Source: Deltaproteobacteria bacterium (lineage in GTDB: Bacteria; Myxococcota; B64-G9). Taken from it: a stretch of DNA of 64,000 nucleotides. Numbering within the stretch: position 1 is the stretch's first letter; the number at the start of each line of letters is the position of its first letter. Location of the stretch: the NCBI GenBank assembly GCA_030622135.1, contig JAUXGL010000001.1, positions 601-64,600 on the forward strand. Direction: 5' to 3'. A program made the translations under genes and the position numbers. The notes beneath the pieces are model-generated. The model did not search any database. It was not told the DNA's origin and saw only the letters and a list, made by a program, of their open reading frames with translations. This document shows positions 34,643 through 53,442 of the stretch, piece by piece.

Positions 34643-35884
34643 ATGAGCGAAAAGAAACTGGAACAGAAGAAGATAGCCTCGGTGAAGACATTCAAGAAGA
34701 TCATGGCGGATCACTTCCTGCAGATCGACGCGGCCGCGAGGGATCCCGGGCGTAAGGTGGCTTGGTGTACCAGCGTGGGGCCGGCGGAGCTTTTGCAGGG
34801 GTTTGGGTTCGAGGTGTACTACCCGGAGAACCACGCGGCTATTCTTGGGTCCACCCGGACGGCCACGGACTATATACCCTACGCCAACGCCGCCGGGTAT
34901 TCCCCGGAGATCTGCTCCTACCTGACCGCCGACGTGGGTGCATACATGCAGGGCTTCACTCCGTTGACCAAGGTCTACGGGATCGAGAAGATCCCCAAGC
35001 CCGACGTGCTGGTCTACAACACCAACCAGTGCCGCGACGTCCAGGACTGGTTCATGTGGTATTCCCGCGAGTGGAAGGTTCCCTGCGTGGGTATCGAGAC
35101 CCATCGCGGCGTGGGCGCGGTAACCAAGGTGCACATCGATTCCATAGCCGGGCAGCTCCAAGACCTCGCCGGCAAGCTCGAGAAGATCGCCGGGCACCCG
35201 CTGGACATGGATCGGTTCAAGCAATCGGTGGAGCTGTCGCGCCGGTGTTCGGAGCTTTGGGACAAGGTGCTCCGCGCCGGTACGGCGGTGCCTTCCGCCA
35301 TCACTTTCTTCGACGGCACCATCCACATGGGTCCCGCGGTGGTCCTGCGCGGACTCCAGGTGGCGGTGGACTACTACCAGGAACTGTTGGTCGAGATGGA
35401 AGCGCGGGTGCAGAACAAGGTGGCCGCGGTCGCAGGGGAGAAGCACCGTCTTTACTGGGAAGGCATGCCTGTCTGGGGCAAGCTCAGAAACCTGTCCATG
35501 CAGTTTCTCGAGCTGCAGACCTGCGTGGTGGCGTCCACCTACTGCAACTCCTGGATTTTCAATCAGCTGGATCCCGACGAGCCCTTCGAGTCCATGGCCC
35601 GCGCCTACACCGAGCTGTTCATCGTCAGAAGCGATGCGGTCAAGGAGGACTACATTGCCCGGATGTGCGCGGACTACCGAGTCGACGGTTTCTTTTACCA
35701 CAACGCCCGCACCTGCCCGAACAATTCCAACTCCAGCTACGGAATGCCCCAGCGCCTGACCGAGCGGACCGGGAAGCCACACCTGGTCATCGACGGGGAT
35801 CTCAACGACCTGCGCTGTTACTCGGAGGAACAGGCCAAGACCAACATCGAGGCCTTTGTCGAGCAACTCGCCCAGGCAACATGA
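34643..35884 (+). CDS. 2-hydroxyacyl-CoA dehydratase / benzoyl-CoA-reductase-subunit family protein (HgdB/BcrB-like)
   Basis: 413 aa; family hallmarks including conserved Cys (WCTSVGP, ICSY, CNSW, CPNNSNS) and overall length and conservation pattern of HgdB/HadC/BcrB-type subunits. Confidence 0.7.
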   Translation: MSEKKLEQKKIASVKTFKKIMADHFLQIDAAARDPGRKVAWCTSVGPAELLQGFGFEVYYPENHAAILGSTRTATDYIPYANAAGYSPEICSYLTADVGAYMQGFTPLTKVYGIEKIPKPDVLVYNTNQCRDVQDWFMWYSREWKVPCVGIETHRGVGAVTKVHIDSIAGQLQDLAGKLEKIAGHPLDMDRFKQSVELSRRCSELWDKVLRAGTAVPSAITFFDGTIHMGPAVVLRGLQVAVDYYQELLVEMEARVQNKVAAVAGEKHRLYWEGMPVWGKLRNLSMQFLELQTCVVASTYCNSWIFNQLDPDEPFESMARAYTELFIVRSDAVKEDYIARMCADYRVDGFFYHNARTCPNNSNSSYGMPQRLTERTGKPHLVIDGDLNDLRCYSEEQAKTNIEAFVEQLAQAT

Positions 35885-36660
35885 AACTGTTCTGCGGCAT
35901 CGACGTTGGCTCGGCCGCCACCAAGGCCGTCCTGATCACCGGGTCTCTCGAGGTGCAGGGGCGGGGGCTGTGTCCCTCGGGAGCCGACTTCTCGGCCGCG
36001 GCCCGGCAGGTGTTCGACGCGGCCCTGGCCGGGGTCGGCGCCGGGGAGGCCGACGTAGAGGCGATCGTCTCCACCGGCTACGGCCGCACCAACGTGGATT
36101 TCGCCACCGCCAGGCGGACCGAGATCGACTGTCACGCTCGGGGTGCCTATCATCACTTCAAAAGGGCCATCACCGTAGTCGACATCGGTGGCCAGGACAA
36201 CAAGATCATCCAGCTCGATGCCGCGGGCAAGTGTCTCAAGTTCGCCATGAACCGCAAGTGCGCGGCCGGTACCGGCGCCTTTTTAGAGGAGATGGCCCTG
36301 CGGCTGAACGTCCCCATCGACAAGCTCTCGAAGATGGCCGAAAACAGCGCGGCCCCGGGTGTATCCATCGGCTCCTACTGCACGGTCTTCGCCATGACCG
36401 AGATTCTCTCCAAGGTGCGCGCGGGAGTGAAGACCGAGGACCTGGCCCGGGCGGCCCTGGTCTCGGTGGCCAAGCGCCTCCTGGAGACCCAGGCCATCGT
36501 CACGGACATCGTGGCCACCGGCGGCGTGGTGGCTCATAACCCGGTTCTGCGGGACATCCTCAAGGAGATTTTGAAGACCGAGGTTCATATCCCTCCGCAT
36601 CCCCAGCACATCGGAGCCTTCGGCGCCGCCCTGGTGGCCGCATCGGAGCAGAAGGAGTAA
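35881..36660 (+). CDS. Acyl-CoA dehydratase activase (HgdC/BcrAD/BadFG ATPase family)
   Basis: 259 aa MKLFCGIDVGSAATKAV (ASKHA phosphate-1 motif), cluster-bridging Cys pair, ATGA-coupled to upstream gene. Confidence 0.8.
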   Translation: MKLFCGIDVGSAATKAVLITGSLEVQGRGLCPSGADFSAAARQVFDAALAGVGAGEADVEAIVSTGYGRTNVDFATARRTEIDCHARGAYHHFKRAITVVDIGGQDNKIIQLDAAGKCLKFAMNRKCAAGTGAFLEEMALRLNVPIDKLSKMAENSAAPGVSIGSYCTVFAMTEILSKVRAGVKTEDLARAALVSVAKRLLETQAIVTDIVATGGVVAHNPVLRDILKEILKTEVHIPPHPQHIGAFGAALVAASEQKE

Positions 36661-36663
36661 AAG

Positions 36664-38769
36664 ATGGCAGACCTGAACAACCTCTTCCGCCCCCGGGGTA
36701 TCGCCATCATCGGCGCGTCCAATCGCCCGTTCACCATCGGCCACCGCATCATGGCAAATCTACAGACCTACGGTTTCAAGGGCCCCATCACCCCGGTCAA
36801 CCCCAAGGGTGGGGAGATCCTGGGCGTTCCGGTGGCCAGGTCCATAAAGGAAGTGCAGAACGACGTCGACCTGGCCCACGTCATCGTGCGCAACACCCTG
36901 GTGGCCCCGACCCTGCGCGACTGCGCCGAGAAGGGCGTGAAGGTGTGCATAATCAACACCTCCGGCTTCAAGGAGCTCAACCAGGAAGGCGCGAAGATGG
37001 AGCGGGAGATCGTCGAGATCGCCCGTGAGCTGGGCATTCGCCTCTTGGGCCCCAACTGCCAGGGGGTGATGAACACCGACTTGGAGGTGAACCTGTACTC
37101 CAACTTCACCTTCGCCAAGATGACCCCGGGCCACGTGTCCATGGTCTGTCAGGGTGGTGGTGTCGCCGAGGTAATCAACAACTACTTTGGCATGAACCAC
37201 ATCGGCCAGCGCATGTACGCTTCCCCGGGAAACGCCTGTGATATCTCCATCCCCGAGATCCTCGAGTTCTACGGCGACGATCCCGGGACCCACGTCATCG
37301 TCCTGCACCTGGAGAGCTTTGCCGATCCCCAGGAGTTTTTAGACAAGGTCCCCGCCATCACCGCCAAGAAACCCGTTCTGGCGCTCAAGTCCGGCACCAC
37401 CCCGGAGGGTGCCCGGGCGGTCTCCTCGCACACCGGTGGCCTGATGGAGCAGGACACCGTCACCGATGTGCTGTTCGACAAGTGCGGCGTCTTGCGTTTC
37501 GCCAATCTCGGCGAGCTTTGTGACACCGCCGCCGCCTTCGCCACCCAGCCGGTCCCCAGGGGCGACCGCGTGGGCATGGTTACCAACGCCGGTTCCCCCG
37601 CCATCATCGTCACCGATGGGGCGGTCAAGGCCGGCCTGAAGGTCCCCGACCTGAGCGAGTCCTCCAAGGAGTTTTTGCGGGAGAAGCTCTCGGCTATCGC
37701 CTCCATCGCCAACCCCATAGATATGATGGCCACCGCCGCGGAGGCCGAGTTCGGCGCCTCGCTCAAGATCCTGGTGGAAGACGCCAATCTCGATTCGGTG
37801 GTGGTTTGCTTCATGACCCCCTTCTTCGTCGACACTCTGGGCATTGCCAAGGCGGTGGAGACCTACGCGGCCCAGACCGACCGCACCCTGATTGCCGTGG
37901 CCATGACCGATCCCGGCGGAAAGGCGGAGTGGAGAGAGACGGTGGAGAAGGTCAGAAAGGCCGGCCTTCCGGTCTACTATTTCCCCGAGGACGCCGCCCG
38001 GGTGCTTTATCACATGAACCGTTTCCGCGCCCTCAGGGACCGCCCGCGCGAGGCCCCGCCCAGGCTGGCCGTGGACAAGAACGCGGCCCGGGGCCTGATC
38101 CAGGGCGCCCAGCGGAGCCCCGATGGTTTCATCTCCCCGGAGGACGCCGGCGCCATCCTGAAGGCCTACGGCATCAACATGGTCGCCGAGCACCGCGGCG
38201 GTACTTTCAACGACCTGAAGGCGGCCGCGGCCAAGATAGGCTACCCGGTGGTCCTGAAGGCCGAGGCTCCAACCCTGGTTCACAAGACCGAGTCTTTCGC
38301 GGTCATCTTAAACATCAAGGACGAGGCCGAGCTGAAAAAAGCCTTCGACGACCTCTATGCCCGCTTGAGGGGCGTCCTGGACTTGTCCTACCTGTTGCAG
38401 AACCAGCTAATCGGTGGCCTGGAGGTCATCGTCGGCGGCGCCCGGGCCTCCAAGTTAGGCTCCATGATCATGTTCGGCCTCGGCGGCGTGAACGTGGAGA
38501 TATTCAAGGACGTGGTCTTCAAGCTGGCTCCCCTCTGCCGTTCCGAGGCCGAGGAGATGCTTGCGGAGATCAGGTCGTCCACCCTGCTGGACGGCTTCCG
38601 CGGCCAGCCGGCGGTCGACCGCGGCGCCCTGGTCGAAATCCTGTTGAAAGTCTCCGTTCTGTTGCACGACCACCCCGAGATCGAGGAGCTTGACCTGAAC
38701 CCGGTCATGGCCTTTCCCGAAGGCCGCTCGTCCGTGGTGGTCGATGCGAGGATCAAACTGGGCAAATAG
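36664..38769 (+). CDS. ADP-forming acyl-CoA synthetase (NDP-forming; fused alpha/beta, CoA-binding + ATP-grasp)
   Basis: 701 aa; N-term RGIAIIGASNRP CoA-binding, catalytic His region, C-terminal ATP-grasp; starts 3 nt after activase stop. Confidence 0.8.
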   Translation: MADLNNLFRPRGIAIIGASNRPFTIGHRIMANLQTYGFKGPITPVNPKGGEILGVPVARSIKEVQNDVDLAHVIVRNTLVAPTLRDCAEKGVKVCIINTSGFKELNQEGAKMEREIVEIARELGIRLLGPNCQGVMNTDLEVNLYSNFTFAKMTPGHVSMVCQGGGVAEVINNYFGMNHIGQRMYASPGNACDISIPEILEFYGDDPGTHVIVLHLESFADPQEFLDKVPAITAKKPVLALKSGTTPEGARAVSSHTGGLMEQDTVTDVLFDKCGVLRFANLGELCDTAAAFATQPVPRGDRVGMVTNAGSPAIIVTDGAVKAGLKVPDLSESSKEFLREKLSAIASIANPIDMMATAAEAEFGASLKILVEDANLDSVVVCFMTPFFVDTLGIAKAVETYAAQTDRTLIAVAMTDPGGKAEWRETVEKVRKAGLPVYYFPEDAARVLYHMNRFRALRDRPREAPPRLAVDKNAARGLIQGAQRSPDGFISPEDAGAILKAYGINMVAEHRGGTFNDLKAAAAKIGYPVVLKAEAPTLVHKTESFAVILNIKDEAELKKAFDDLYARLRGVLDLSYLLQNQLIGGLEVIVGGARASKLGSMIMFGLGGVNVEIFKDVVFKLAPLCRSEAEEMLAEIRSSTLLDGFRGQPAVDRGALVEILLKVSVLLHDHPEIEELDLNPVMAFPEGRSSVVVDARIKLGK

Positions 38770-38776
38770 AGGTGTT

Positions 38777-40321
38777 ATGGCGAACTGGCTGAACCTGGGC
38801 GAGATGCTGAGACAAAACGCTCACAAGTACCCCGAGACGATCTGTCTCATGGACCGCGAAAGGTCTTTCACCTTTCCCCAGTCCAACCGGCGCGCCTGCC
38901 GCCTGGCCCACGGTTTAATGTCTTTAGGGTTGAAGAAGGGCGACCGGGTCTCTTGCCTTTTGGAGAACTGCATCGAGTTCGTGGAAATCTACCTGGCCTG
39001 CGCCAAGGTCGGCATCGTGGTGAACCCGATCAACTTCCGCGTTTCCCCGCGGGACGCTCTTTTCATCGCCAACCACGCCGAGGCCCAGGCCTTCATCGTC
39101 CACGACATCTTCACCGACACCGTCGACGGCATCCGCCGGGACTTGATTGTTCCCCAGGATCGCTGCGTGGTCGTGGGTAAGGAAAAAGACGGCTACATTC
39201 CCTACGAAACCCTGATCGACCCAGGCGACTCCTCCGAACCCCAGGTGGAACTGAAACCGTCGGACCCCTGGATCCTCCTCTACACCTCCGGCACCACCGG
39301 TCGCCCCAAGGGGGTGATGAGGTCTCACGAGTCTTACGTGGCGTTTTATTTAATCAACGCGATAGACTTCGATTTTCGCCCCGGCGACCGCGTACTGAAC
39401 ATGATGCCCCTGTGTCATGTCAACACAACCTTCTTTACCTTCACCTTCACTTACATCGGCGGCACGACCTACGTGGCCCCCGCCATGGGCTTCGACCCCA
39501 AGAAGATGTTGCAGATCGTCGGGGACGCCGGGATCAACTTCATATCTCTCATTCCCACCCACTACGCCCTGATTTTGGCCGTACCCGAGGAAGAGAGAGC
39601 GAAATACGACGTCTCCAGCATCAAGAAGCTCCTGTGCTCCTCGGCCCCCGCGAGGATCGAGCACAAGCATGGCATCATGAAGTACATGCAGGGCGTCCAA
39701 CTCTACGAAGGCTACGGCTCGACCGAGGCCGGCATCGTGACCACGTTGATGCCCGACGAGCAGCTGACCAAGCCCGGCTCAATCGGCAAGGAGTCTTTGG
39801 GCACCGACCGCGTAAAGATCCTCGACGAGGAAAAACAAGAGCTCCCCCGCGGCCAGATCGGCGAACTGTACTCCCGCGGCCCCATGATGTTCGACGGCTA
39901 CTACAAGGACCCCGAAAAAACCACCAAGTCATTCGCCGGCGAATGGTTCTCCGCCGGCGACATGGCCTACCAGGATGAGGACGGCTATTTCTTCTTAGTC
40001 GATCGCAAGCACAACATGATAATCACCGGCGGCGAGCACGTCTTTCCCTCCGAAGTCGAGAACGTACTCTGCCAGCACGAAACGGTCCTAGACGCCGCCG
40101 TAATCGGCGTCCCCCATGACAAATGGGGCGAATCGGTCCACGCCGTAGTGATATTAAAGGAAGGCTGCTCCTGCCGCGACCAGGATCTGATGGACTTCTG
40201 CCGCGACCGCTTAGCCGGTTTCAAGCGCCCCAAGACCGTCCAATTCATCGCCCTTGACGAAATGCCCCGCACCGCCACCGGCAAGATCCTCCACCGCATC
40301 CTGCGCGAACGCTGTTCTTAA
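38777..40321 (+). CDS. AMP-dependent acyl-CoA synthetase/ligase
   Basis: Preferred ATG 38777; AMP-binding motif LYTSGTTGRPKGV, YGSTE, C-terminal GKI lysine region. Confidence 0.85.
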   Translation: MANWLNLGEMLRQNAHKYPETICLMDRERSFTFPQSNRRACRLAHGLMSLGLKKGDRVSCLLENCIEFVEIYLACAKVGIVVNPINFRVSPRDALFIANHAEAQAFIVHDIFTDTVDGIRRDLIVPQDRCVVVGKEKDGYIPYETLIDPGDSSEPQVELKPSDPWILLYTSGTTGRPKGVMRSHESYVAFYLINAIDFDFRPGDRVLNMMPLCHVNTTFFTFTFTYIGGTTYVAPAMGFDPKKMLQIVGDAGINFISLIPTHYALILAVPEEERAKYDVSSIKKLLCSSAPARIEHKHGIMKYMQGVQLYEGYGSTEAGIVTTLMPDEQLTKPGSIGKESLGTDRVKILDEEKQELPRGQIGELYSRGPMMFDGYYKDPEKTTKSFAGEWFSAGDMAYQDEDGYFFLVDRKHNMIITGGEHVFPSEVENVLCQHETVLDAAVIGVPHDKWGESVHAVVILKEGCSCRDQDLMDFCRDRLAGFKRPKTVQFIALDEMPRTATGKILHRILRERCS

Positions 40322-40493: not shown

Positions 40494-41795
40494 ATGCGAC
40501 GGAAAATGTTCGTACTGGCTATGTTGTTGGCACTTGGATTCGTCTTTGGATGCAGCTCCGGCGGCGGCCCGGTGAAGCTCGAGAACATCTGCGAGGAGAT
40601 GAAGGCGGCCATGTGTAGTTACCTCAAGAGATGCGATATCGAGTGGTTTCTCCAGGTCGCGACACATGAGACCTGCGACCAGATGATAAAATGCGACGAT
40701 GATGATATGGAGTTCGATGAGATGACCAAGGCGGTGGAGGCGGGGAGGATGGCATACGACGCGGACCTGGCCGGCAAGTGCCTGCGGCTCATTCGCACGG
40801 CCGAGTGTGCCGATGTCGAGGGGATCTTCGAGAACATGTCGGAAGAGTGCGAGAATGTCTTCTCCGGCCTGGTCGCCCAGGACGGAGATTGCTATCAGGA
40901 GGAAGAGTGCGCCGGGGGCCTCTACTGTGACGAGACCGTGTCGGAGTGCCCGGGCCAGTGTCAGCCGTACCAAGGCCTCGGGGATACATGCGACGACAGC
41001 AGCGAATGCGATCCGGATGCCGCCGACTGCAATTGGCAGGAAGGCGTCTGTGTGGAACTGGTCGGCACGGGGGAGAACTGCGATTACGTCGACTGCGCGG
41101 CGGGGCTGGTGTGCGACCACAACAGCAAACCGGCGGTCTGCCTTGCTCCGGCTCCGGAGGGGTCCGACTGCACGTCCTCCCGCGGTTGTCTGGGTGGGCT
41201 GCAGTGCGTGGACGGGAAATGCGCCGGCCCGGCGGGCGCGGGACAGGAATGCAACATCGGCGAGGGTTTCGAGAGATTCATGGGATTCATGTTTGCCTGC
41301 GAGCTGGGCTACTACTGCGACGCGGATGTTTTCCTGCAGCAGAGCAGCGGCACTTGCCAGTCCAAGAAGGCCTCGGGATCGGAATGCATCCTTTTCCACG
41401 AATGCAACTCCGGCCTGCTGTGCATCGGCATGCAGATAAACGAGCAGACCTTCAAGGTCATTCCGGGATCGTGCGGAAAGCCGCTCGAGGCGGGGGCGTC
41501 GTGCAACCCCGATTTCGAGTTTCCCGAATGCGACTGGGATCTCTACTGCGACGGGCATACCTCGGTCTGCACCGTCTTCCCGGGCATCGGCGATCCTTGC
41601 GTCTACGGAAATGACCCCGGGTGTTTCGGCGGCGATCTCTACTGCGATTCTTTGGCGTTGGGCGTACCCGGAGTCTGCCAGCAGAAGAAGCCGGACGGCT
41701 CCGACTGCACGACCTACGAGGAGTGCCAAAGCCACAACTGCGACATCGACGGCACCGATACCTGCCTGCCGGATGAGCGCTGTACCGCGCCGTAA
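40494..41795 (+). CDS. Cys-rich secreted lipoprotein, hypothetical
   Basis: Signal + lipobox MRRKMFVLAMLLALGFVFGC; about 50 Cys in recurring CxxGLxCD/ GxCQ patterns. Confidence 0.6.
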   Translation: MRRKMFVLAMLLALGFVFGCSSGGGPVKLENICEEMKAAMCSYLKRCDIEWFLQVATHETCDQMIKCDDDDMEFDEMTKAVEAGRMAYDADLAGKCLRLIRTAECADVEGIFENMSEECENVFSGLVAQDGDCYQEEECAGGLYCDETVSECPGQCQPYQGLGDTCDDSSECDPDAADCNWQEGVCVELVGTGENCDYVDCAAGLVCDHNSKPAVCLAPAPEGSDCTSSRGCLGGLQCVDGKCAGPAGAGQECNIGEGFERFMGFMFACELGYYCDADVFLQQSSGTCQSKKASGSECILFHECNSGLLCIGMQINEQTFKVIPGSCGKPLEAGASCNPDFEFPECDWDLYCDGHTSVCTVFPGIGDPCVYGNDPGCFGGDLYCDSLALGVPGVCQQKKPDGSDCTTYEECQSHNCDIDGTDTCLPDERCTAP

Positions 41796-42910: not shown

Positions 42911-43585
42911 TCACCGGCCCAGGGGTTTGTAGAATTCCATGCCGCCGCGGTGGCGCAGGATGCTCCGGACCAGGCCCTGGAAATCTTCCTCCGAGTCCGC
43001 TACGTTTATATCCGAGGTATCAACCACCAGAAGCGGTGTATCGGAGTAGTGGAAGAAGTAGTCGTTGTAGGTGGAAGCCAGGCGCTTGAGGTAGTCGGGA
43101 TCGAAGTTTTGCTCGAACGCTCGCCCGCGCCGCTTTATCCGGTCCAGCAGCATCTCGATGCGGGCCTGCAGGTAGACCACCAGGTCGGGTTTGAGCACCC
43201 GCGTGTCCAGGATCTGAAAGACCTGATCGTAGAGCAGCATTTCGTTGTCGGAGAGGGTTAGCTGGGCGAATATCCGGTCCTTGGAGAAAATGTAGTCGCT
43301 GAAGATGTACCGGTGGAACAGGTCGGGCTGCCAGAGATCTTGCTGCTGGCGGTATCGGCTCAACAGAAAGAAGAGCTGGGTCTGGAAGGCTAACTTTTCC
43401 TGGTTTTGGTAGAAGTCGGGAAGAAAGGGGTTTTCCTCCACCACCTCCACCACCGTCTTGGCGGGGAAGTGATCGGCCAGTCGCTGAACCAGCGTGGTTT
43501 TTCCCACCCCGATGGGACCTTCTACCGCGATGTAGGTAGGTCGGGCGGTGGTCTCCGGAGTGGCTTTCTGCCTGGCTTTTTTCAT
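42911..43585 (-). CDS. Deoxynucleoside kinase (dNK family)
   Basis: 224 aa; P-loop VEGPIGVGKTT, ERS-like and Arg-rich LID typical of dAK/dGK/dCK. Confidence 0.8.
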   Translation of the reverse strand: MKKARQKATPETTARPTYIAVEGPIGVGKTTLVQRLADHFPAKTVVEVVEENPFLPDFYQNQEKLAFQTQLFFLLSRYRQQQDLWQPDLFHRYIFSDYIFSKDRIFAQLTLSDNEMLLYDQVFQILDTRVLKPDLVVYLQARIEMLLDRIKRRGRAFEQNFDPDYLKRLASTYNDYFFHYSDTPLLVVDTSDINVADSEEDFQGLVRSILRHRGGMEFYKPLGR

Positions 43586-44226
43586 AGCTTCTCGAGTTTT
43601 TTCTCGATCAGGTGAATGAAGGTCTGCTTGCCGTCCGGGGAGCGGATGTCGAGCTTCTCCACGTTAACGCGGGTCACCGGGATGGAGTACTTCTTCTTAC
43701 AGACCTGTCCGAAGGTCGAATAATAAGCGTTCAGGCCGGTGATGAACTGCTTGTCGATGCTGCGTTCTTCCTCTCGCCCGCGGGTGCGGATCCGCTTGAG
43801 CAGCGTTTCGACGTTATCGACCTCGAGAATGACGATCAGATCGGGTTGCCTGATGTCGCGGTTGAGCTGGTCGAAATACTCGAAGTACAGGTCCAGCTCT
43901 CGGTTGTCCATGAATCCCAGGCCGTGCAGGTATTTGGCGAAGATCTCCGGATCTTCGTACAGGGTGCGATCCTGGATGCAGTTTTTGGGCACTCGGCGAA
44001 TGAGTTTGTGATGTTCCACTCGTTTGATTAGGAACTCCAGTTGCAGGGTGAACGACCAGCGCTGCATGTCGGCGTAGTAGTCCTTCAAGAATCGGTTGTC
44101 GATGACCGGTTCGTCGAATAACTCGAAGCCCAGGTTTTGGCTCACCAGCTTCGCGGCGGTGGTCTTGCCGCATCCGATGTTGCCAGCCATGGAGATAAAG
44201 AGCTTGTCGTGCAAGGGATGGTCCAA
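43582..44226 (-). CDS. Deoxynucleoside kinase (dNK family), tandem paralog
   Basis: 214 aa; P-loop MAGNIGCGKTT; 4-nt overlap with downstream paralog. Confidence 0.8.
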   Translation of the reverse strand: MDHPLHDKLFISMAGNIGCGKTTAAKLVSQNLGFELFDEPVIDNRFLKDYYADMQRWSFTLQLEFLIKRVEHHKLIRRVPKNCIQDRTLYEDPEIFAKYLHGLGFMDNRELDLYFEYFDQLNRDIRQPDLIVILEVDNVETLLKRIRTRGREEERSIDKQFITGLNAYYSTFGQVCKKKYSIPVTRVNVEKLDIRSPDGKQTFIHLIEKKLEKL

Positions 44227-44417
44227 TAAAATCTCGCCCGGCCATTATATACACCCGAACAGGGAAATCAATATCGCCCTCAGCCCATAATCTCCCAGCC
44301 CATTTCCGGTCGATCCCAACACCCTTTTCGGGCATTACCGGTGAATTGGGGTGGGTCCTAGAGAAGTTGCATCCTCCCGAGGGATTGCCTATAATTTCTT
44401 GGGATTACGTGTAGTTG

Positions 44418-46778
44418 ATGAAGGTGGTGAGGGTGGCGAACGAATCAGACGATCGTCGGGGGCATTTGCGTGTTCCCGTGAACTTGCTGGTGCGGGTCAA
44501 GTACGAGCAGGTGGGTGAATTCATGGTTCACTTTGCCACCAACATCAGCTCGGGCGGGGTATTTCTCCAGAGCCGGAAGCCCTACAAGAAGGGAACCCGT
44601 CTACGCTTCGAGATTCGGCTGAAGGGCGGGCAGACGATCCTGCGGGGCGAGGGGGCGGTGGCCTGGTGCCGTGGACCTTCCGAGGGGGAGGATAAGCCCC
44701 AGGTGCCGGGTATGGGGGTGAAGTTTGTCGCCCTGGACGATGCATCGAAGGTCCTGGTCAGAAAGATCCTCGAGATCAAGGCGGGCAAGAAGGCAACGGC
44801 GAAACCAAAACCAAAACCAAAACCAAAACCTGCCCCAGTGGACGTAGACATCGACATAGACATCGACGTGGGGGCAGAGGTTCCCGCACCCGAACAGAGT
44901 CCGACCGTCGAGGTGGGCAACGGTTTGGAGGTAGAGGCGCGGACGGGTATCGAGGTGGATATCGACGTGGATGTGGACGTCGAGGAGCCCGACGATTTCG
45001 ACGTGGACATCTCGGTGGACGACTTCGTGGATCCTGCCGAGGATCAGGTAAAGGCTGCCCGGTCGCCCACCGGGGGGGGATCCTCGCGCGTCATCGGGAT
45101 CGACCTGGGCACCACCAACTCCTGCGCTGCGGTGGTGATCGACGGAAAGCCCAAGGTGATTCCCTCCCGCAAGGGATACCGCACCATTCCCTCCATCGTG
45201 GCCTACGCCGACGACGGCCGCTTACTGGTGGGGCATTCGGCCAAGGCGCAGATGGAGTTGAACCCGCGAAACACCGTTTATAGCTCCAAGCGCCTGATCG
45301 GCCGCTCCTTCGATTCCCAGGCCGTGCAGCAGATGAAAAGCCGGTTCCACTACGAGATTATCGAGGGGCCCAAGCACGAGGCGGCCGTCCGGGTGGCGGG
45401 AAGGACCTTCAGTCTGCAGCAGGTGGCCGCGTTCATCCTGACCGAGATCCGCGACATCGCGCGTGACCTGCTCCAGGAAGAGGTAAACCGGGCGGTGATC
45501 ACCGTGCCGGCCTACTTCAACGAAAATCAGCGCGAGGCCGTGCGCGAGGCGGGCATCCTGGCCGGCCTCCAGGTGGAGCGTATCATTAACGAGCCGACGG
45601 CGGCGGCACTGGCCTTCGGGTACGACCGCGGCCTGGATCAGAGGATACTGGTGTACGACCTCGGTGGCGGGACCTTCGACGCCACCGTGCTCGAGCTGTG
45701 CGGCAACGTATACGAGGTGGTGTCCACCGGCGGCGACACCTTTTTAGGCGGAGTGGATTTCGACAATCAGCTGGTCGACTACCTGCTAGACGCTTTCTGT
45801 CGGGACATGGGTACGGTTCCCCAGTTGGACCGCTCTGCGGTGCAGCGGCTGCGCGACGCCGCCGAGCAGGCCAAGTGTGCCCTGAGCGAGAAGGAAGAAA
45901 CCATCGTCAGGATCCCCTTCTTCGCCGCAATCGATAACACCCCCAAGGACCTGGAGGTGCGCGTCACCCGGGTGCTTCTGGAGGACATGGTCACTCCCCT
46001 GGTGGAGCGGACCATGTTGGTGGCCACCAACGTGCTCGAGCAGGCCAAGCTGCGGCCCAAGCAGATCAACAACGTGCTGCTGGTCGGCGGACAGAGCCGC
46101 ATGCCGCTAATCTGGCGCCGGATCAAGGAGCTGTTCGACCGGGATCCCCACAAGGGTGTTCATCCCGACGAGGCGGTGGCCATCGGGGCGGCCTTGCTGG
46201 CCAATTCCCAGGGCAAGATCGACAGTGTGGTTCTTATAGATGTCCTGCCGGTGAGCATCGGAATCGGAATCCCCGGCGGGCGCTTCATGCGGGTGCTCGA
46301 GGGCGGGACCGCCCTGCCCACCACCAAGACCTACACGATCCGGACGTTCAAGGACGACCAGGACACGCTGGAACTAGCCGTTTTTCAGGGAGAAAGCGAC
46401 CGGGTGGTGGACAACGAGTACCTGGGGACGATGACCATATCCGGCATCACCAAGGCCCCCAAGGGTGCTGTGCAACTGGAGATCACCTTTTCCCTCGACC
46501 AGGAATGCCTGTTGAAAGTATCTTCCCGGGAACTTCAGTCGGGAAAGATCACCGAGACCCAGATGGGCGTCAAAGATACAGAGGACATCATTCGCAAGAA
46601 GCTCAAGATCCCCGAGAGCGAGATCAGCATGCGGAAGTACGGAGTCCCCCGATCGTTACGCCAGGCCGATAAAAAGCAACCGGTTGTTAGGAAGCAGCCG
46701 GGAGAAAAGGAGACAGAGGGGGAAAACTCCAAGGAAAAAGGAGGGCTTCTGGGTAAGCTGTTCGGGCGCAAGAAATAG
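44418..46778 (+). CDS. PilZ-domain / Hsp70 (DnaK-like) fusion protein with low-complexity KP and DVDID linker
   Basis: N-terminal PilZ-like ([14 protein letters not shown]...ISSGGVFL, RxxxR...D/NxSxGG). Linker (KP)n and (DID/DVD)n. From [12 protein letters not shown] onward, Hsp70 NBD motifs (DLGGGTFD) and an SBD-like region. Confidence 0.8.
44803..45010 (+). repeat. Coding microsatellite-like repeats (aaacca)n and (gacatc/gacgtg)n inside the PilZ-Hsp70 linker
   Basis: aaaccaaaaccaaaaccaaaacc and gacatcgacatagacatcgac / gtggatatcgacgtggatgtggacgtc seen directly. Confidence 0.7.
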
Positions 46779-46867
46779 GCAATCAGGTTGAATGCGGAGG
46801 GGTGTCAAGCTGGTCCAAGTAGAGAAAAGGTGGTACTGAAATATTGGAGGAGTAAGGAGGTACAGGC

Positions 46868-47488
46868 ATGGTGCAGAAAACGACAATTGTAGTGGGTGTG
46901 GCCGTTGCGCTGATGTTGCTGGCCGCCGCCCCTCCCGGGGCCGTGGATGTGTATCTCAACGGGGTGCAGATAACCGGCGCGAAGGACCAGGTGATCGACA
47001 AGGCCAAGGTTACCCTCGACAAGAACGGAAATGTGCACATCTCCGCCCCGGACTACAAGGTGCGCGAGGTGGGCGCGTCGGGTGTGGGTACCAGCCCACC
47101 GCCGGCCGCGCCGACGACCGTGGCGAACCTGAGGCACAAGTATTTCGTGGTTACCGAGGTGACTCGCTTGGGCATGACCGGCTACACCATCCAGATCATG
47201 GTCAACAACAAGTTCCTCAAGGCGCTTCCCGACACCATCTCCCAGCACGTGCTGGAGCTGAATAACTACCTCAACGAGGGCACCAATACGATCAGCTTCC
47301 GGGCCATCCGCCACCAAGGTAAATCCGCCCAGAGCATCCTGGCCTCGGACTCGTTCTCCGTCGTTCTGGGCGAGGGCAAGGGTAGGGAGGGCGGCACCCT
47401 GACCATCGACAACGTCCTGGCCGAGTTCAAGGTCACCGCCATCGATCGCGGAGAGAAGGCCAAGACGTTCACGATCAAGGCCAAATAG
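46868..47488 (+). CDS. Secreted hypothetical protein
   Basis: Signal MVQKTTIVVGVAVALMLLAAAPPGA; no recognisable domain. Confidence 0.5.
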   Translation: MVQKTTIVVGVAVALMLLAAAPPGAVDVYLNGVQITGAKDQVIDKAKVTLDKNGNVHISAPDYKVREVGASGVGTSPPPAAPTTVANLRHKYFVVTEVTRLGMTGYTIQIMVNNKFLKALPDTISQHVLELNNYLNEGTNTISFRAIRHQGKSAQSILASDSFSVVLGEGKGREGGTLTIDNVLAEFKVTAIDRGEKAKTFTIKAK

Positions 47489-47560
47489 GTTTAGTCCCCC
47501 AGTTTTCCTTGCCATGGTAGGTGCGTGCGAGTATCCTCCCGCCGGAAGGGAGGATGTCCC

Positions 47561-48760
47561 ATGCCGTCTTCGGAAGAAATCATCGAAATTACCGAGAAGT
47601 ACGGAGCTCGCAACTACAAGCCCCTGCCGGTGGTCATCTCCAGGGCCGAGGGGGCCTGGGTGTGGGACTGCGAGGGAAAGAAGTACCTGGATTTCCTCTC
47701 CGCCTACTCGGCGGTCAATCAGGGACACCGGCACCCGGTTATTGTCGGGGCCATGAAGGAGCAACTCGATCGGGTCACACTGACCTCGCGCGCCTTCCAC
47801 AACGATCAGTTGGGGCCGTTCTTGGAAGAGATCTGCAAACTATCCGGCATGGAGATGGCTCTACCCATGAACACCGGTGCCGAGGCGGTGGAGACGGCAG
47901 TGAAGATGGCGCGCAAGTGGGGATACACCAGTAAGAAGGTGGCCGAAAACCAGGCGGAGATTGTTTGCTGCACCGACAACTTCCACGGTCGCACCACCAC
48001 GGTGGTTTCCTTTTCCTCGGATGAGCAGTACAAGGAGGGCTTTGGTCCCTACACTCCGGGATTCAAGCTGATCCCCTTCGGTGATGTCGAGGCGTTCGAG
48101 AAATCCATTGGGCCCAACACGGTGGCGTTCTTGGTGGAGCCGATCCAGGGCGAGGCCGGCGTGGTGGTGCCTCCCGACGGCTACCTCAAGCGGGTAAGGG
48201 ACATCTGCACCAAGAACAACATCTTGTTGATGCTCGACGAGATCCAGACCGGCCTGGGACGGACCGGTCGGATGTTCTGCTTCGAGCACGAAGGAATCCG
48301 CCCGGACGTGCTCATGCTGGGCAAGGCCATCTCCGGCGGCCTGCTTCCGGTCAGCGTGGTCCTGGCCTCCCGGGAGGCACTCTCCGTATTTCGCCCCGGC
48401 GATCACGGCAGCACCTTCGGCGGCTGCCCCATCGGTTGCGCCGTGGCCCGGGCCGCCTTGAGGGTGATCGTGGAAGATAAGCTGCCGCAACGCTCCGCCG
48501 AGTTGGGGGCCGCATTTTCGAAGAAGCTCGAAACCCTGGTGGGAGCAAAGGTCGAGCTGGTCCGCGGCCGGGGCCTCTTTCTGGCCGTGGTGTTGAAAAA
48601 GGCTGCCGGGCCCGCCCGGGCCTATTGCGAGCAATTGCTGGAGAAGGGTCTCCTCTGCAAGGAGACCCATGAGAATATAATCCGTTTCGCTCCCCCGCTG
48701 GTGATCGATCAAAAAGACCTCGACTGGGCCTTCGAGCGGATAAAGGAAGTGTTGGGGTAG
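47561..48760 (+). CDS. rocD: Ornithine aminotransferase (class-III PLP aminotransferase)
   Basis: Preferred ATG 47561 (GGGAGG RBS); MPSSEEIIEITEKYGARNYKPLPVV is an OAT-type N-terminus; PLP Lys region DEIQTGLGRTG...LGKAISGG. Confidence 0.85.
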   Translation: MPSSEEIIEITEKYGARNYKPLPVVISRAEGAWVWDCEGKKYLDFLSAYSAVNQGHRHPVIVGAMKEQLDRVTLTSRAFHNDQLGPFLEEICKLSGMEMALPMNTGAEAVETAVKMARKWGYTSKKVAENQAEIVCCTDNFHGRTTTVVSFSSDEQYKEGFGPYTPGFKLIPFGDVEAFEKSIGPNTVAFLVEPIQGEAGVVVPPDGYLKRVRDICTKNNILLMLDEIQTGLGRTGRMFCFEHEGIRPDVLMLGKAISGGLLPVSVVLASREALSVFRPGDHGSTFGGCPIGCAVARAALRVIVEDKLPQRSAELGAAFSKKLETLVGAKVELVRGRGLFLAVVLKKAAGPARAYCEQLLEKGLLCKETHENIIRFAPPLVIDQKDLDWAFERIKEVLG

Positions 48761-51271: not shown

Positions 51272-52252
51272 CTATATCCCCAGAATGCGGCCGATCGCCT
51301 TGGCTAGATCGGTAAACTCCTTGCGAGCCCTGGCCACAGCCTGAATCTGTCCACCACCGATTCCGTCGGCCTGCTTGAGATCGAAGATTGGCTTGCGAGC
51401 TTGCTGTGCGAGCGGCACCAGGCTCGCGAAGTGTTTCAGCAATGCGATGCAATGGGGGTCCCTGTCCACGCTCGCTGGCCAGCGTTTCTCTGGTGTCTGG
51501 AGCACCTCATGGTGGAACACTGATGGGATCTGGCTCGCCCAACGCTGGTACCCGCGCACAGGTCTGTCCGACCGTGCAAGGTGCTGCTGTACGATGTACC
51601 CTCTTGGCAGGAACTCATGCGCAACCGGGCGTGGATCAGTCCGCTCGGCGGCGCGCTGCCAGTCTTTGCGCCAATCCCTCATCACAGGTCCCACGTTCCG
51701 GAGCCCCTGGAGGCTGAACAAATCCGGAGCGACCGGCAGGATAACCACGTCTGCGGCCAGGAGCGCTGCCCGGTTGAGCGCCCCCAGGTTGGGTCCGACG
51801 TCGAGCAGCAGCACATCGGCTTCGACCTTCTCCGCGGCGATGTCCGCAAGCCGCTGCAGGGCAGTAGCCACGTGGAGAGCCTTCTCATTGTCAGATTGAT
51901 GGATCTGCCCCCAGCTCTCCGCCAAAGGCTGCTCGAACCGGCCCAGCGCCAAGTCTCCAGGAAGAACCCAAAAATCATCGGCGATCTGGACCGGGGCTGG
52001 ATCCACGATGTCGCCCTTGCCGCGGCGGACCAGATCGATACACCGGGCCACGGTCGTCCCTCTAGGATCTTCAGACTCCCAGAGATCGACGAGACTCTCT
52101 TCGCTGAGACAGATGGCGGACAAGTTGCACTGGGGATCGTAGTCCAAGGCGATCGTCTTGAATCCCTGGCGAGCAAGTATGTGAGCGATGTTGAAGGTCA
52201 GGGTGGTCTTTCCCACTCCGCCCTTGTTGTTGAACAGGACAAGCGATTTCAA
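51272..52252 (-). CDS. ParA/MinD-like P-loop ATPase with C-terminal extension
   Basis: 326 aa; deviant Walker A NNKGGVGKTT; 4-nt overlap with upstream AlbA_2 gene. Confidence 0.75.
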   Translation of the reverse strand: MKSLVLFNNKGGVGKTTLTFNIAHILARQGFKTIALDYDPQCNLSAICLSEESLVDLWESEDPRGTTVARCIDLVRRGKGDIVDPAPVQIADDFWVLPGDLALGRFEQPLAESWGQIHQSDNEKALHVATALQRLADIAAEKVEADVLLLDVGPNLGALNRAALLAADVVILPVAPDLFSLQGLRNVGPVMRDWRKDWQRAAERTDPRPVAHEFLPRGYIVQQHLARSDRPVRGYQRWASQIPSVFHHEVLQTPEKRWPASVDRDPHCIALLKHFASLVPLAQQARKPIFDLKQADGIGGGQIQAVARARKEFTDLAKAIGRILGI

Positions 52253-53442
52253 GTATGACTCCGAATTGTGATGACCGTGTAGCCATCCGTCCTCACTTCG
52301 AACGGCGGGTTGCCATTTTTTTCTAGAAGTCGGCGCACCCGTTGGATGCCGCGACCCAGGCGCTCGACATATCCCAACTCGACCAGCAGGTTGGTGATGG
52401 TCGGATTCCGGTAGTCGGCCTGATCCCCGAATTCACCCTCCTTGGCCTGGCCATACGGACCACCCGGGTTGTAGAACTCGATCCGATCCTTGAACCAATT
52501 AATTCTGCCGGGCGCGTTCGTCCCCTCGTACAGCCTGTGCTGGACCTGGTTCCGCGCAAGCTCCCTCAGAGCCTCGACCGGATACTCCGGCGGGTACGGG
52601 GTTCGGATTCCCTGCTCCTTGGCCACCACCTGCGAGTTGTTGGCATTCAACTGAGCCCAGATGGTCTCCAGTTGGTCACACAGGTCTCCGGTGATGGTGC
52701 GTCGGCTTGTCACGGTCGAATCGACATCGACGCCATCGTAGCGCGCGAACTCCACGAGCGCCCCTGGCAGGTAGGTCAATGGATCCACACCGTACACGAG
52801 GACCGCGGCAGTGGTGGGCACCCAGATTCCGTCCACCAAGCGGGCCAGGTTCTTCTGCCCAAGCCATTTCTCGAACTCGGGGAAGGTCTGGTCATCCTCG
52901 TCCGAGTGCCGGGCGACATCGTACCGCTCCCGGAGTTTGCGCAGCGCCAGGGCGCCCAGGTCTGACCCGCGATGCGGCCTGATATCGAAGGGTTGACGAC
53001 CCTCGGGACGTCGTTCGTTTAATCGGACTCGATCTGCCTCGGTGGCTCGTTGGGTCGAGGTGCCCACTCGCACCCAGGGAACACCATTGACCTCGACCAC
53101 GGGCGGAACGGGATATGGCTGGACGCGGACCACGAGTATTTCACAACCAGCGATGTCGGCCTTCTGCACCCCGAACGAAGGGTTGGGGAGAATCTTCGTA
53201 GATTTCAACCTGTTGACAACTCTCTGGATGGCTTCGTCGGAGGCATCCGTCCCGACAGGTTCGCCCCTCTTGTTCACTCCGATGAGAATGACACCCGGAC
53301 GCCCACTGTCGCCGAGGTCGTTGGAGAAAGCGCATGCGGACCTGACCACGTCGTCGCTATCCGATTCTTTCCACTCAGACCATTCGCTCTCGCCAGCCAA
53401 GGCTTCTTTAACTATGGCCAGTATTTCGCCCGCTCCAGACAT
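52249..53442 (-). CDS. Schlafen-like AlbA_2 + HATPase_c_4 (RecG-C-terminal-like) putative DNA-binding ATPase
   Basis: 397 aa; N-terminal AlbA_2-like (EWKES...SACAFSNDLGDSGRPGVILIGV); C-terminal GHKL-like segment (ALRELARNQVQHRLYEG...RIEFYNPGG). Confidence 0.7.
   Translation of the reverse strand: MSGAGEILAIVKEALAGESEWSEWKESDSDDVVRSACAFSNDLGDSGRPGVILIGVNKRGEPVGTDASDEAIQRVVNRLKSTKILPNPSFGVQKADIAGCEILVVRVQPYPVPPVVEVNGVPWVRVGTSTQRATEADRVRLNERRPEGRQPFDIRPHRGSDLGALALRKLRERYDVARHSDEDDQTFPEFEKWLGQKNLARLVDGIWVPTTAAVLVYGVDPLTYLPGALVEFARYDGVDVDSTVTSRRTITGDLCDQLETIWAQLNANNSQVVAKEQGIRTPYPPEYPVEALRELARNQVQHRLYEGTNAPGRINWFKDRIEFYNPGGPYGQAKEGEFGDQADYRNPTITNLLVELGYVERLGRGIQRVRRLLEKNGNPPFEVRTDGYTVITIRSHT

Follow-up and report, generated by a model that had tools for sequence, protein, structure and literature searches.

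A CsdK-type PilZ-Hsp70 fusion from an uncultured Myxococcota clade probably pairs a putative c-di-GMP-binding domain with a naturally lidless chaperone on a disordered, length-variable tether

What kind of chaperone is encoded by a gene that joins a PilZ domain to an Hsp70-like ATPase, and does the PilZ domain place that chaperone under the control of cyclic di-GMP (c-di-GMP)? The question is raised by a gene at positions 44418-46778 (including the stop codon) on the forward strand of a stretch of 64,000 nucleotides from contig JAUXGL010000001.1 (GenBank assembly GCA_030622135.1; Myxococcota). This whole stretch is called the window below, all positions are those of its forward strand, and the protein product is referred to as the query. 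The original prediction, made from the DNA letters, described a PilZ-Hsp70 fusion with a repeat-encoded linker, which was thought to be unusual and to imply a second-messenger-gated chaperone. We conclude, with a probability of roughly 0.6, that the gene is a member of the CsdK-type family and encodes a non-canonical myxobacterial DnaK paralog, the PilZ domain of which is carried on a long, disordered and length-variable tether.

Profile searches place both halves of the predicted fusion in one uninterrupted open reading frame (ORF) (44415/44418-46778, forward strand, with the stop codon at 46776-46778). The PilZ profile PF07238 is matched with 44.2 bits, against a gathering cutoff of 22.5, by residues 12-116 over profile positions 1-98 of 102, and the Hsp70 profile PF00012 is matched with 537.7 bits by residues 225-716. 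These two residue ranges refer to the 786-residue form of the protein, all other residue numbers in this text being those of the 781-residue form. The two forms stem from two gene calls that are 100% identical in sequence, one by NCBI (P0001, 781 residues, GTG start at 44433) and one by the Joint Genome Institute (JGI; P0121, 786 residues, ATG start at 44418). Close homologs begin at the position matching GTG 44433 (MAN... or MAD...), and a Shine-Dalgarno-like sequence, AAGGTGGT, is located at 44421-44428, 4 nucleotides 5' of this codon; GTG 44433 is probably the better start. The possibility of a chance ORF or a pseudogene was rejected because more than 100 alignment columns are invariant across approximately 50% divergence.

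The PilZ domain (residues 9-118; 44457-44786, forward strand, as are all features of the gene given below) is delimited by PF07238, by TIGR02266, a PilZ-type "M. xanthus paralogous domain" from NCBIfam (86.6 bits against a cutoff of 68.7), by AlphaFold2 models and by comparison with folds in the PDB. It forms a β-barrel followed by a C-terminal helix. When modeled alone (predicted local distance difference test score, pLDDT, of 84.9), the domain has strands at residues 16-21, 42-46, 56-62, 68-80, and 93-101 and a helix at residues 103-123; the same five strands are present in the full-length model, together with helices at residues 27-37 and 103-118. Because the PilZ-only model retrieves PilZ proteins first in the PDB, filling all top 11 places in a Foldseek search, we regard the fold as confirmed. 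Moreover, the two c-di-GMP hallmarks named in the original prediction withstand careful alignment. The RxxxR motif (R-G-H-L-R, within RRGHLR) is located at 44457-44471 and the (D/N)xSxxG motif (N-I-S-S-G-G) at 44541-44558. Both halves are under selection: in an alignment of 66 homologs, with identities down to approximately 48%, conservation is 90% or higher at R9 and R13, and N37, S39 and G42 are invariant. The two motifs start at positions 9 and 37, an offset of 28 residues that is constant in the family, and RxxxR is found in most of 120 homolog clusters with the same spacing from NxSxxG. Putative binding of c-di-GMP by the PilZ domain is well supported by this motif conservation, and gating of the attached chaperone by the second messenger, as originally envisaged, would be a further step that the sequence may suggest.

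The Hsp70 part begins with a nucleotide-binding domain (NBD; residues 219-592, 45087-46208), which is defined by PF00012, by alignment to E. coli DnaK (PDB 2kho) and by pLDDT values above 90 in the AlphaFold2 model. On the basis of the same alignment, it is followed by the hydrophobic interdomain linker VVLIDV (46227-46244), corresponding to 389-VLLLDV in DnaK, and by the β-sandwich of the substrate-binding domain (SBD-β; residues 605-712, 46245-46568), for which strands are modeled at residues 609-712, again with pLDDT above 90. The counterparts of DnaK residues D8, K70, E171, D194, T199, and D201 are D224, K286, E387, D409, T414, and D416, and all of these are invariant in the 66 homologs, as are L601, D603 and L605 of the interdomain linker. 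The equivalents of R167, N170, and T173, which make J-domain contacts in DnaK, are also present and are invariant or nearly so. In addition, the SBD-β pocket stays hydrophobic, with I, I, L, and L at the positions of DnaK I401, F426, V436, and I438, respectively.

The Hsp70 part had been described as a complete NBD plus a region resembling a substrate-binding domain, and this holds for the catalytic residues, the interdomain linker and SBD-β but not for the helical SBD-α lid, which is missing. Thus, PF00012 is matched only at positions 1-496 of its 599. The 66 residues that follow SBD-β are predicted to be disordered, with a 7-residue helix (717-723), which is a stub of lid helix A, preceding a Lys/Glu-rich tail (stub and tail together at 46569-46730, as judged from the extent of the Pfam profile and the AlphaFold2 model) in which pLDDT falls below 50 for residues 740-771. 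E. coli DnaK has approximately 249 residues after its interdomain linker (389 of 638), compared with 129-210 in all of the homologs that we compared, and the lidless state is universal in the PilZ-Hsp70 family. Canonical DnaK was rejected as the identity of the protein on account of the missing lid and of scores of 577.2 and 563.1 with the equivalogs NF001413 and TIGR02350 (cutoffs 648 and 822.55, respectively), and HscA was rejected on the same grounds (TIGR01991, 440.9 against a cutoff of 708.55). That the protein stays under all of these DnaK and HscA cutoffs is in keeping with the absence of the lid. Judged by its sequence, the protein is an Hsp70 but not DnaK proper.

A full-length AlphaFold2 model, calculated from the 66-sequence alignment, has a mean pLDDT of 81.6 and a predicted template modeling score of 0.71, with the NBD and SBD-β both above 90. 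Its best fit in the PDB is to the ATP-state, domain-docked form of DnaK (4b9q; template modeling score, TM, of 0.80 on the target, 517 columns, 43% identity). Superposition on lid-truncated or AMPylated BiP gives TM values of approximately 0.89-0.91 and root-mean-square deviations (rmsd) down to 2.1 Å, and the fit to the undocked ADP-state of DnaK (2kho) is poor, with an rmsd of 17.9 Å.

The PilZ domain and the NBD are joined by an inter-domain linker (residues 119-218; 44787-45086), which was characterized by composition and by comparison with homologs. The original description of this segment as low-complexity is apt for its (KP)5 run and its alternating Asp/hydrophobic runs; the linker is not purely of low complexity, however, in that it also contains conserved islands, including PTGGxSSR. 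It is predicted to be disordered, with AlphaFold2 pLDDT values below 50 for residues 120-155 and 161-210. As had been noticed, short tandem DNA repeats encode parts of it. Tandem Repeats Finder identifies 4.8 copies of AAACCA at 44802-44830 (100% matches, score 58), which encode (KP)5, 2.2 copies of the 12-bp unit GACATAGACATC at 44841-44867, which encode DIDIDIDV, and 2.8 copies of a 12-bp repeat at 44948-44980. Since three of the seven tandem arrays in the window that score at least 45 are found in a segment of approximately 180 bp in the linker, their clustering there is not background.

Comparison with homologs shows how freely this segment varies in length. When the query is aligned with relatives that are approximately 80-86% identical, 47 of 135 columns in the linker are gapped, as against none of 615 columns in the PilZ domain, NBD and SBD-β, and the copy number of the (KP)n and DID runs differs between such relatives (P0002-P0004 in the case of the KP run). 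In the family as a whole, the length of the linker ranges from 42 to approximately 500 residues, the upper end being represented by M. xanthus (approximately 460-500 residues, 26% Pro and 18% Ala). Despite this range, islands of alternating acidic and hydrophobic residues are present in every linker compared, and (E/D)F(D/E)LDL occurs in 7-8 copies in M. xanthus. As these alignments show, the linker evolves by in-frame gain and loss of repeats, and the AAACCA and 12-bp arrays can be read as the footprint of replication slippage in a segment where length is weakly constrained; a regulated switch is not shown by these data.

As part of trying to understand how widely this architecture is distributed, we searched approximately 5.8 billion protein clusters with the query and then again with a homolog from the Myxococcus clade (L020). 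PF07238 and PF00012 occur together in nearly all of the best 120 clusters of each search. The named matches of the query search are from Myxococcota (Anaeromyxobacter, Vulgatibacter, Myxococcales, and others), and the second search added 231 matches with E values below 1e-100, including proteins from Myxococcus xanthus, M. fulvus, Corallococcus, Archangium, Hyalangium, and Pyxidicoccus. Moreover, when one genome per species was scanned, approximately 40 Myxococcota genomes proved to carry the PilZ-Hsp70 fusion. Matches outside this phylum (Planctomyces, Campylobacterota) cover the Hsp70 part only, with 32-37% identity. The fusion family thus comprises several hundred clusters and, as far as it is sampled and named, appears to be confined to Myxococcota. 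Its members are annotated at NCBI as "TIGR02266 family protein" or "molecular chaperone DnaK". The fusion is therefore not the rarity for which it was originally taken. Indeed, PilZ proteins with DnaK or DnaJ domains were listed in an earlier systematic study (PMC8316039), and CsdK1 (Mxan_3778) and CsdK2 (Mxan_6605) of M. xanthus were introduced by Seidel et al. in 2023 (PLoS Genet; PMC10313047) as "two unusual PilZ-DnaK chaperones". The fusion is already known from these two proteins, and the query is a further member from an uncultured Myxococcota clade.

In the CsdK paper (PMC10313047), CsdK1 and CsdK2 are reported to accumulate at 37 °C and upon depletion of the nucleoid protein CdbA. They are redundantly required for accumulation of the small PilZ protein CdbS, which they stabilize under heat stress and whose accumulation perturbs chromosome organization and speeds cell death. 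CdbS is bound by the DnaK part of CsdK2, and DnaJ1, GrpS, and Hsp20_1 co-purify with CdbS. The same paper describes a full c-di-GMP motif in CsdK2 and a motif lacking its first half in CsdK1. Three traits of the family go unmentioned in the paper, namely the missing lid, the MinD-like C-terminal motif discussed below and the acidic/hydrophobic linker islands; the words "lid" and "amphipathic" are absent from it, and "membrane" is used only for blotting membranes and in one cited title.

Two M. xanthus homologs identified in our searches (P0227 and P0243) are 48% identical to the query over the NBD and SBD-β and 44% identical over the PilZ domain, and both are of lidless length. Efforts to match them to Mxan_6605 and Mxan_3778 by means of the Arg38 numbering were unsuccessful, the annotated starts being different. 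In a neighbor-joining tree of the NBD and SBD, the query is located in an uncultured clade, where its nearest species-level relatives are 68% identical. This clade groups with Anaeromyxobacter-type sequences and lies outside both of the paralog clades formed by Myxococcaceae/Archangiaceae proteins. As this tree places it outside the CsdK1/CsdK2 duplication, the query is probably a co-ortholog of the CsdK pair rather than an ortholog of either protein.

A number of observations weigh against a functional reading modeled on CsdK, and some of them favor other explanations for parts of the protein. Transfer of function from M. xanthus is, given this tree, an extrapolation across approximately 50% identity to a protein outside the CsdK1/CsdK2 duplication. 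The importance of c-di-GMP binding by CsdK2 is explicitly left open in the CsdK paper, in which a mutant of the motif, R38A, still bound CdbS (PMC10313047). Arch residues of the substrate-binding domain are changed, with Pro in place of DnaK M404 (P614, near-invariant in the family) and Phe in place of A429, so that client specificity may differ from that of DnaK. No J-domain, GrpE, second PilZ domain, or second Hsp70 was found among six-frame ORFs of the 64-kb window, using an approximate query for the J-domain, so that the window points to no partners or clients in this organism. The nearest solved folds of the PilZ domain, and its only sequence-level matches in the PDB, are PilZ adaptors from Xanthomonas, which are not c-di-GMP binders, and one Myxococcaceae/Archangiaceae paralog clade has a disrupted RxxxR motif and yet retains the domain. 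These last points are what one would expect if the PilZ domain were a protein-protein adaptor that tethers the Hsp70 to a partner or client, like the Xanthomonas or Pseudomonas PilZ proteins (PilB-FimX bridge), and not a sensor, in which case c-di-GMP would have no role or only an indirect one via other PilZ proteins such as CdbS. In structure, the PilZ-only model comes closest to XAC1133/XC1028 (7lkm, 4fou, and 3dsg; TM 0.55-0.64), the PDB titles of which speak of "trivial c-di-GMP binding activity", whereas the verified binders MotI (5vx6), YcgR (5y6g), PA4608 (1ywu), and the BcsA PilZ domain rank lower. In the disrupted clade (L025, L028, L036, and L038), RxxxR is broken by one or two inserted residues (as in RRSPQQARK) while NxSxxG and the remainder of the protein are intact, in agreement with the published description of CsdK1 (PMC10313047), and this pattern implies a role of PilZ that would be independent of c-di-GMP in that clade. 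Nevertheless, the Xanthomonas adaptors possess neither half of the motif, having FVKSGG where the query has NISSGG, and the retention of RxxxR and of the invariant N, S, and G across approximately 50% divergence is hard to explain without ligand binding; the spacing of the two halves is likewise unchanged. We consider a pure adaptor role for the query domain to be unlikely. Even less credit is given to the idea that the linker repeats are a device for phase or length variation, by which slippage would tune the tether between strains and hence the coupling of PilZ to Hsp70. The perfect AAACCA array, the packing of three arrays into so short a segment, the many indels located exactly in the linker, and the family-wide range of lengths are all compatible with this idea. 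All of the repeat units are multiples of 3 bp, however, so that slippage alters length and never turns the gene off; moreover, the linkers in the two independent assemblies that contain the exact gene (the NCBI contig, from a metagenome-assembled genome, and JGI 3300040951 Ga0451374_12503) are identical, as are the whole proteins. The originally proposed change of repeat number by slippage is thus seen between relatives and not as strain-level variation between these two assemblies, and variation between species rather than within a population is normal for disordered linkers. A role in switching is accordingly rated as very unlikely.

The extreme C-terminus raises two further alternatives. 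A conserved basic/hydrophobic motif (46731-46775), identified by comparison with homologs, resembles both the membrane-targeting sequence of MinD and an Hsp70 client peptide. The pattern [LIFM][LFIG]x[RK][LIFMW][LFI][GSRA] is present in the last 30 residues of 84 of 110 full-length clusters and, where present, always ends 0-8 residues from the C-terminus; throughout the family, five residue types (G, R, K, L, and F) account for 71% of the final 14 positions. Variants in Myxococcaceae/Archangiaceae are GGFWGKLKSLFKR and GGRFWSFLKRVVGK, and the M. xanthus proteins P0227 and P0243 end in GGFWSFVKKALGRK. The membrane-targeting sequence of E. coli MinD is KGFLKRLFGG (PMC5471200), and the query segment GLLGKLFG is identical to GFLKRLFG of MinD at five of eight positions, while the Anaeromyxobacter oryzae homolog (P0085) matches it at all eight. 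One possibility is therefore that the protein is recruited to the inner membrane by a MinD-type amphipathic helix in place of the lid, that this recruitment is under the control of PilZ and c-di-GMP, and that the chaperone acts there on, for example, the envelope, motility or secretion machinery. This explanation would refine the CsdK-type reading and is compatible with it; we hold it to be possible but somewhat doubtful. It gains from a best hydrophobic moment of the query tail (0.51 on the Fauchere-Pliska scale) that is near the value of 0.55 for the MinD sequence, from Myxococcaceae tails with moments of 0.75-0.76 that exceed those of their shuffles (p ~0.04-0.06; 0.76 for FWGKLKSLFK), from an undocked short helix at residues 773-776 in the AlphaFold2 model (pLDDT ~51), as expected of a helix that folds on membranes, and from the reported existence of membrane-associated DnaK paralogs such as DnaK3 in cyanobacteria (PMC4297356). 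The moment of the query tail is, however, no better than that of shuffles of its own residues (p ~0.3, and 0.40 for the family consensus), and on the Eisenberg scale the tail is only approximately the 164th of 771 windows in the protein; we have consequently dropped amphipathicity as evidence for the query tail. In addition, the amphipathicity of the last 16 residues of homologs barely exceeds that of the 44 residues before them (median 0.51 versus 0.48), some clades are entirely without the motif, and the available text of the CsdK paper reports no loss of accumulation for the C-terminally tagged proteins CsdK1-mVenus and CsdK2-HA in M. xanthus (PMC10313047). Since the motif also fits the pattern of DnaK clients, an equally live reading is that it acts as a tethered pseudo-substrate, entering the lidless cleft in cis or in trans and causing auto-inhibition or oligomerization that would be relieved by clients, by PilZ or by c-di-GMP. 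The tail pattern KK-GLFGRLFG-RKK has a hydrophobic core with basic flanks, in line with the client rule reportedly formulated by Ruediger and colleagues in 1997, in which a Leu-rich hydrophobic core is flanked by basic residues. Absence of the lid leaves the substrate cleft open, and the PDB matches of the model include lid-truncated BiP entries (7a4u and 7a4v) with an oligomeric state in their titles. On the other hand, the modeled tail is undocked and forms a low-confidence helix rather than an extended strand, and a pseudo-substrate would not need a strictly terminal position; as a specific explanation of the motif it strikes us as improbable. A broader proposal, which covers CsdK1 and CsdK2 as well as the query, is that these naturally lidless proteins have replaced the lid by a MinD-like helix, and that c-di-GMP binding to PilZ, perhaps together with the linker islands, controls either membrane recruitment or access to the cleft. 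We regard this as a rather unlikely conjecture. Were it correct, however, it would describe a chaperone switched at the membrane by a second messenger, a mode of regulation not known for any Hsp70, and in CsdK1-mVenus and CsdK2-HA the C-terminal tags would have hidden the targeting helix.

Returning to the CsdK-type chaperone that we favor, the protein would be an ATP-driven chaperone or holdase that depends on a J-protein and GrpE and has a narrow range of clients, in the way that CsdK1 and CsdK2 serve CdbS under heat stress. The chaperone role towards a client, the heat induction and the co-purification with DnaJ, GrpE and Hsp20 proteins are taken by analogy from the published homologs. Without the lid, client binding and release might both be fast. 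By binding c-di-GMP, the tethered PilZ domain would adjust the site of action or the targets of the chaperone and change its activity, partner choice or localization, possibly through altered contacts between PilZ and either partners or the Hsp70 body. As for the terminal motif, it could recruit the protein to a membrane or fold back into the protein's own substrate cleft.

These considerations have several consequences. As an annotation, CsdK-type PilZ-Hsp70 fits the gene better than "DnaK" or the uninformative "TIGR02266 family protein". The family, one of few in which a core chaperone has a receptor for a second messenger built into it, is found well outside the fruiting myxobacteria, in uncultured lineages of Myxococcota. 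The missing lid, the MinD-like motif and the linker islands, which persist over a more than 10-fold range of linker length, provide experimental handles in M. xanthus, where genetics are in place, and the comparative features also warn that C-terminal tagging is possibly not neutral. The interest of the locus lies mainly in the question of c-di-GMP control and in the comparative features that make such control testable.

The surroundings of the gene do not inform its function. Upstream, two tandem deoxynucleoside kinase (PF01712) paralogs are encoded divergently on the reverse strand (42911-44226), and this pair is conserved upstream of the gene in four related loci (L004, L005, L009, and L010). 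A candidate sigma-70-like promoter, TTGTCG-17-TAAAAT (44204-44232, forward strand, 9/12 in a consensus scan), is present in the divergent intergenic region; the scan found 3 sites where 0.9 are expected in shuffles, which is a hint only and not evidence of function. Downstream, 89 nucleotides 3' of the PilZ-Hsp70 stop codon, there is a conserved 206-residue ORF (46868-47488, forward strand; tblastn and JGI call) with a signal-peptide-like N-terminus and a strong Shine-Dalgarno sequence of its own. It matches no Pfam or NCBIfam family, and tblastn places it directly downstream of the fusion gene in 11 related loci with 44-76% identity. This frame scores far better in tblastn than the overlapping frame on the reverse strand, and the 331-residue minus-strand ORF (46805-47800) is probably spurious. 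A weak scan, which provides only a hint, detected no terminator between the two genes, and PilZ-Hsp70 and the 206-residue ORF may be co-transcribed. Further neighbors are CheB upstream and, beyond the 206-residue ORF, an ornithine aminotransferase followed by an M2/M3-type peptidase. The same arrangement of genes recurs at 7-11 loci within the close clade, although not in Myxococcaceae.

Elsewhere in the window, which contains no tRNA genes and no Rfam families, an 84-bp tandem repeat is located at 33397-33600 (2.4 copies, 87% matches, Tandem Repeats Finder score 317), one frame of which encodes the Cys-rich unit HCGACGNACAAGKACCDGTCADLNDDD; it is probably part of a repeat protein rich in Cys. 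Another Cys-rich ORF lies at 40494-41795 and has a Dickkopf_N-like match. The genes at 34643-40321 (forward strand) resemble an anaerobic acyl-CoA metabolism module; their products are a subunit of the 2-hydroxyacyl-CoA dehydratase type (HGD-D), an activator ATPase (BcrAD/BadFG), an acyl-CoA synthetase of the ADP-forming kind (CoA_binding and ATP-grasp_5), and an AMP-binding enzyme. Finally, a ParA/MinD-like P-loop ATPase (AAA_31/CbiA) and a protein with Schlafen AlbA_2 and HATPase_c_4 domains are encoded at 51272-53442 (reverse strand) with a 4-bp overlap, and these two genes may constitute a regulatory or defence-like module.

Among known systems, E. coli DnaK (2kho, 4b9q) is 42-44% identical to the query over approximately 510-520 columns and shares the catalytic and J-contact residues, the VLLLD-type linker and the SBD-β fold; unlike DnaK, however, the query has an additional N-terminal PilZ domain and linker, no SBD-α lid, and Pro and Phe at the arch, and, set against canonical DnaK, there is no dnaJ or grpE gene near it. 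The same body, composed of only an NBD and SBD-β, is found in engineered Hsp70s from which the lid has been truncated (Mycoplasma DnaK without SBD-α, 5obu; lid-truncated or AMPylated BiP, 7a4u and 6eof). These are laboratory constructs, whereas the lidless state of the PilZ-Hsp70 proteins is natural and family-wide. The type IV pilus PilZ proteins of Xanthomonas have the same β-barrel and long C-terminal helix as the N-terminal domain of the query but are stand-alone adaptors without RxxxR, and it is the query that keeps both motif halves. As to the C-terminus, the MinD sequence shares with the query tail its extreme position, the succession of Gly, two hydrophobic residues, any residue, a basic residue and Leu-Phe-Gly, the basic flanks, and a similar hydrophobic moment, although its host is a ParA/MinD ATPase and not an Hsp70, and the amphipathicity of the query tail is not significant against shuffles. 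Cyanobacterial DnaK3 is a specialized, thylakoid-associated DnaK paralog that is reported to be concentrated at membranes (PMC4297356). It lacks a PilZ domain and differs in its C-terminal region; the likeness to the query is functional only and would hold if the query tail were a membrane-targeting sequence.

The closest counterparts are CsdK1 and CsdK2, which combine an N-terminal PilZ domain, NBD, interdomain linker and SBD in one polypeptide (PMC10313047), as does the query. The NCBI label, TIGR02266 family protein, is also the same. The intact bipartite motif of the query matches that described for CsdK2 (PMC10313047). The M. xanthus homologs P0227 and P0243, like the query, have no lid and a basic/hydrophobic C-terminal end, although the C-terminal motif of the query is of a different type. 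The tethers differ as well, that of the query being acidic, approximately 100 residues long and marked by (KP)5 where those of M. xanthus are several times longer and Pro/Ala-rich, and the gene neighborhood is not common to the query and M. xanthus or other Myxococcaceae.

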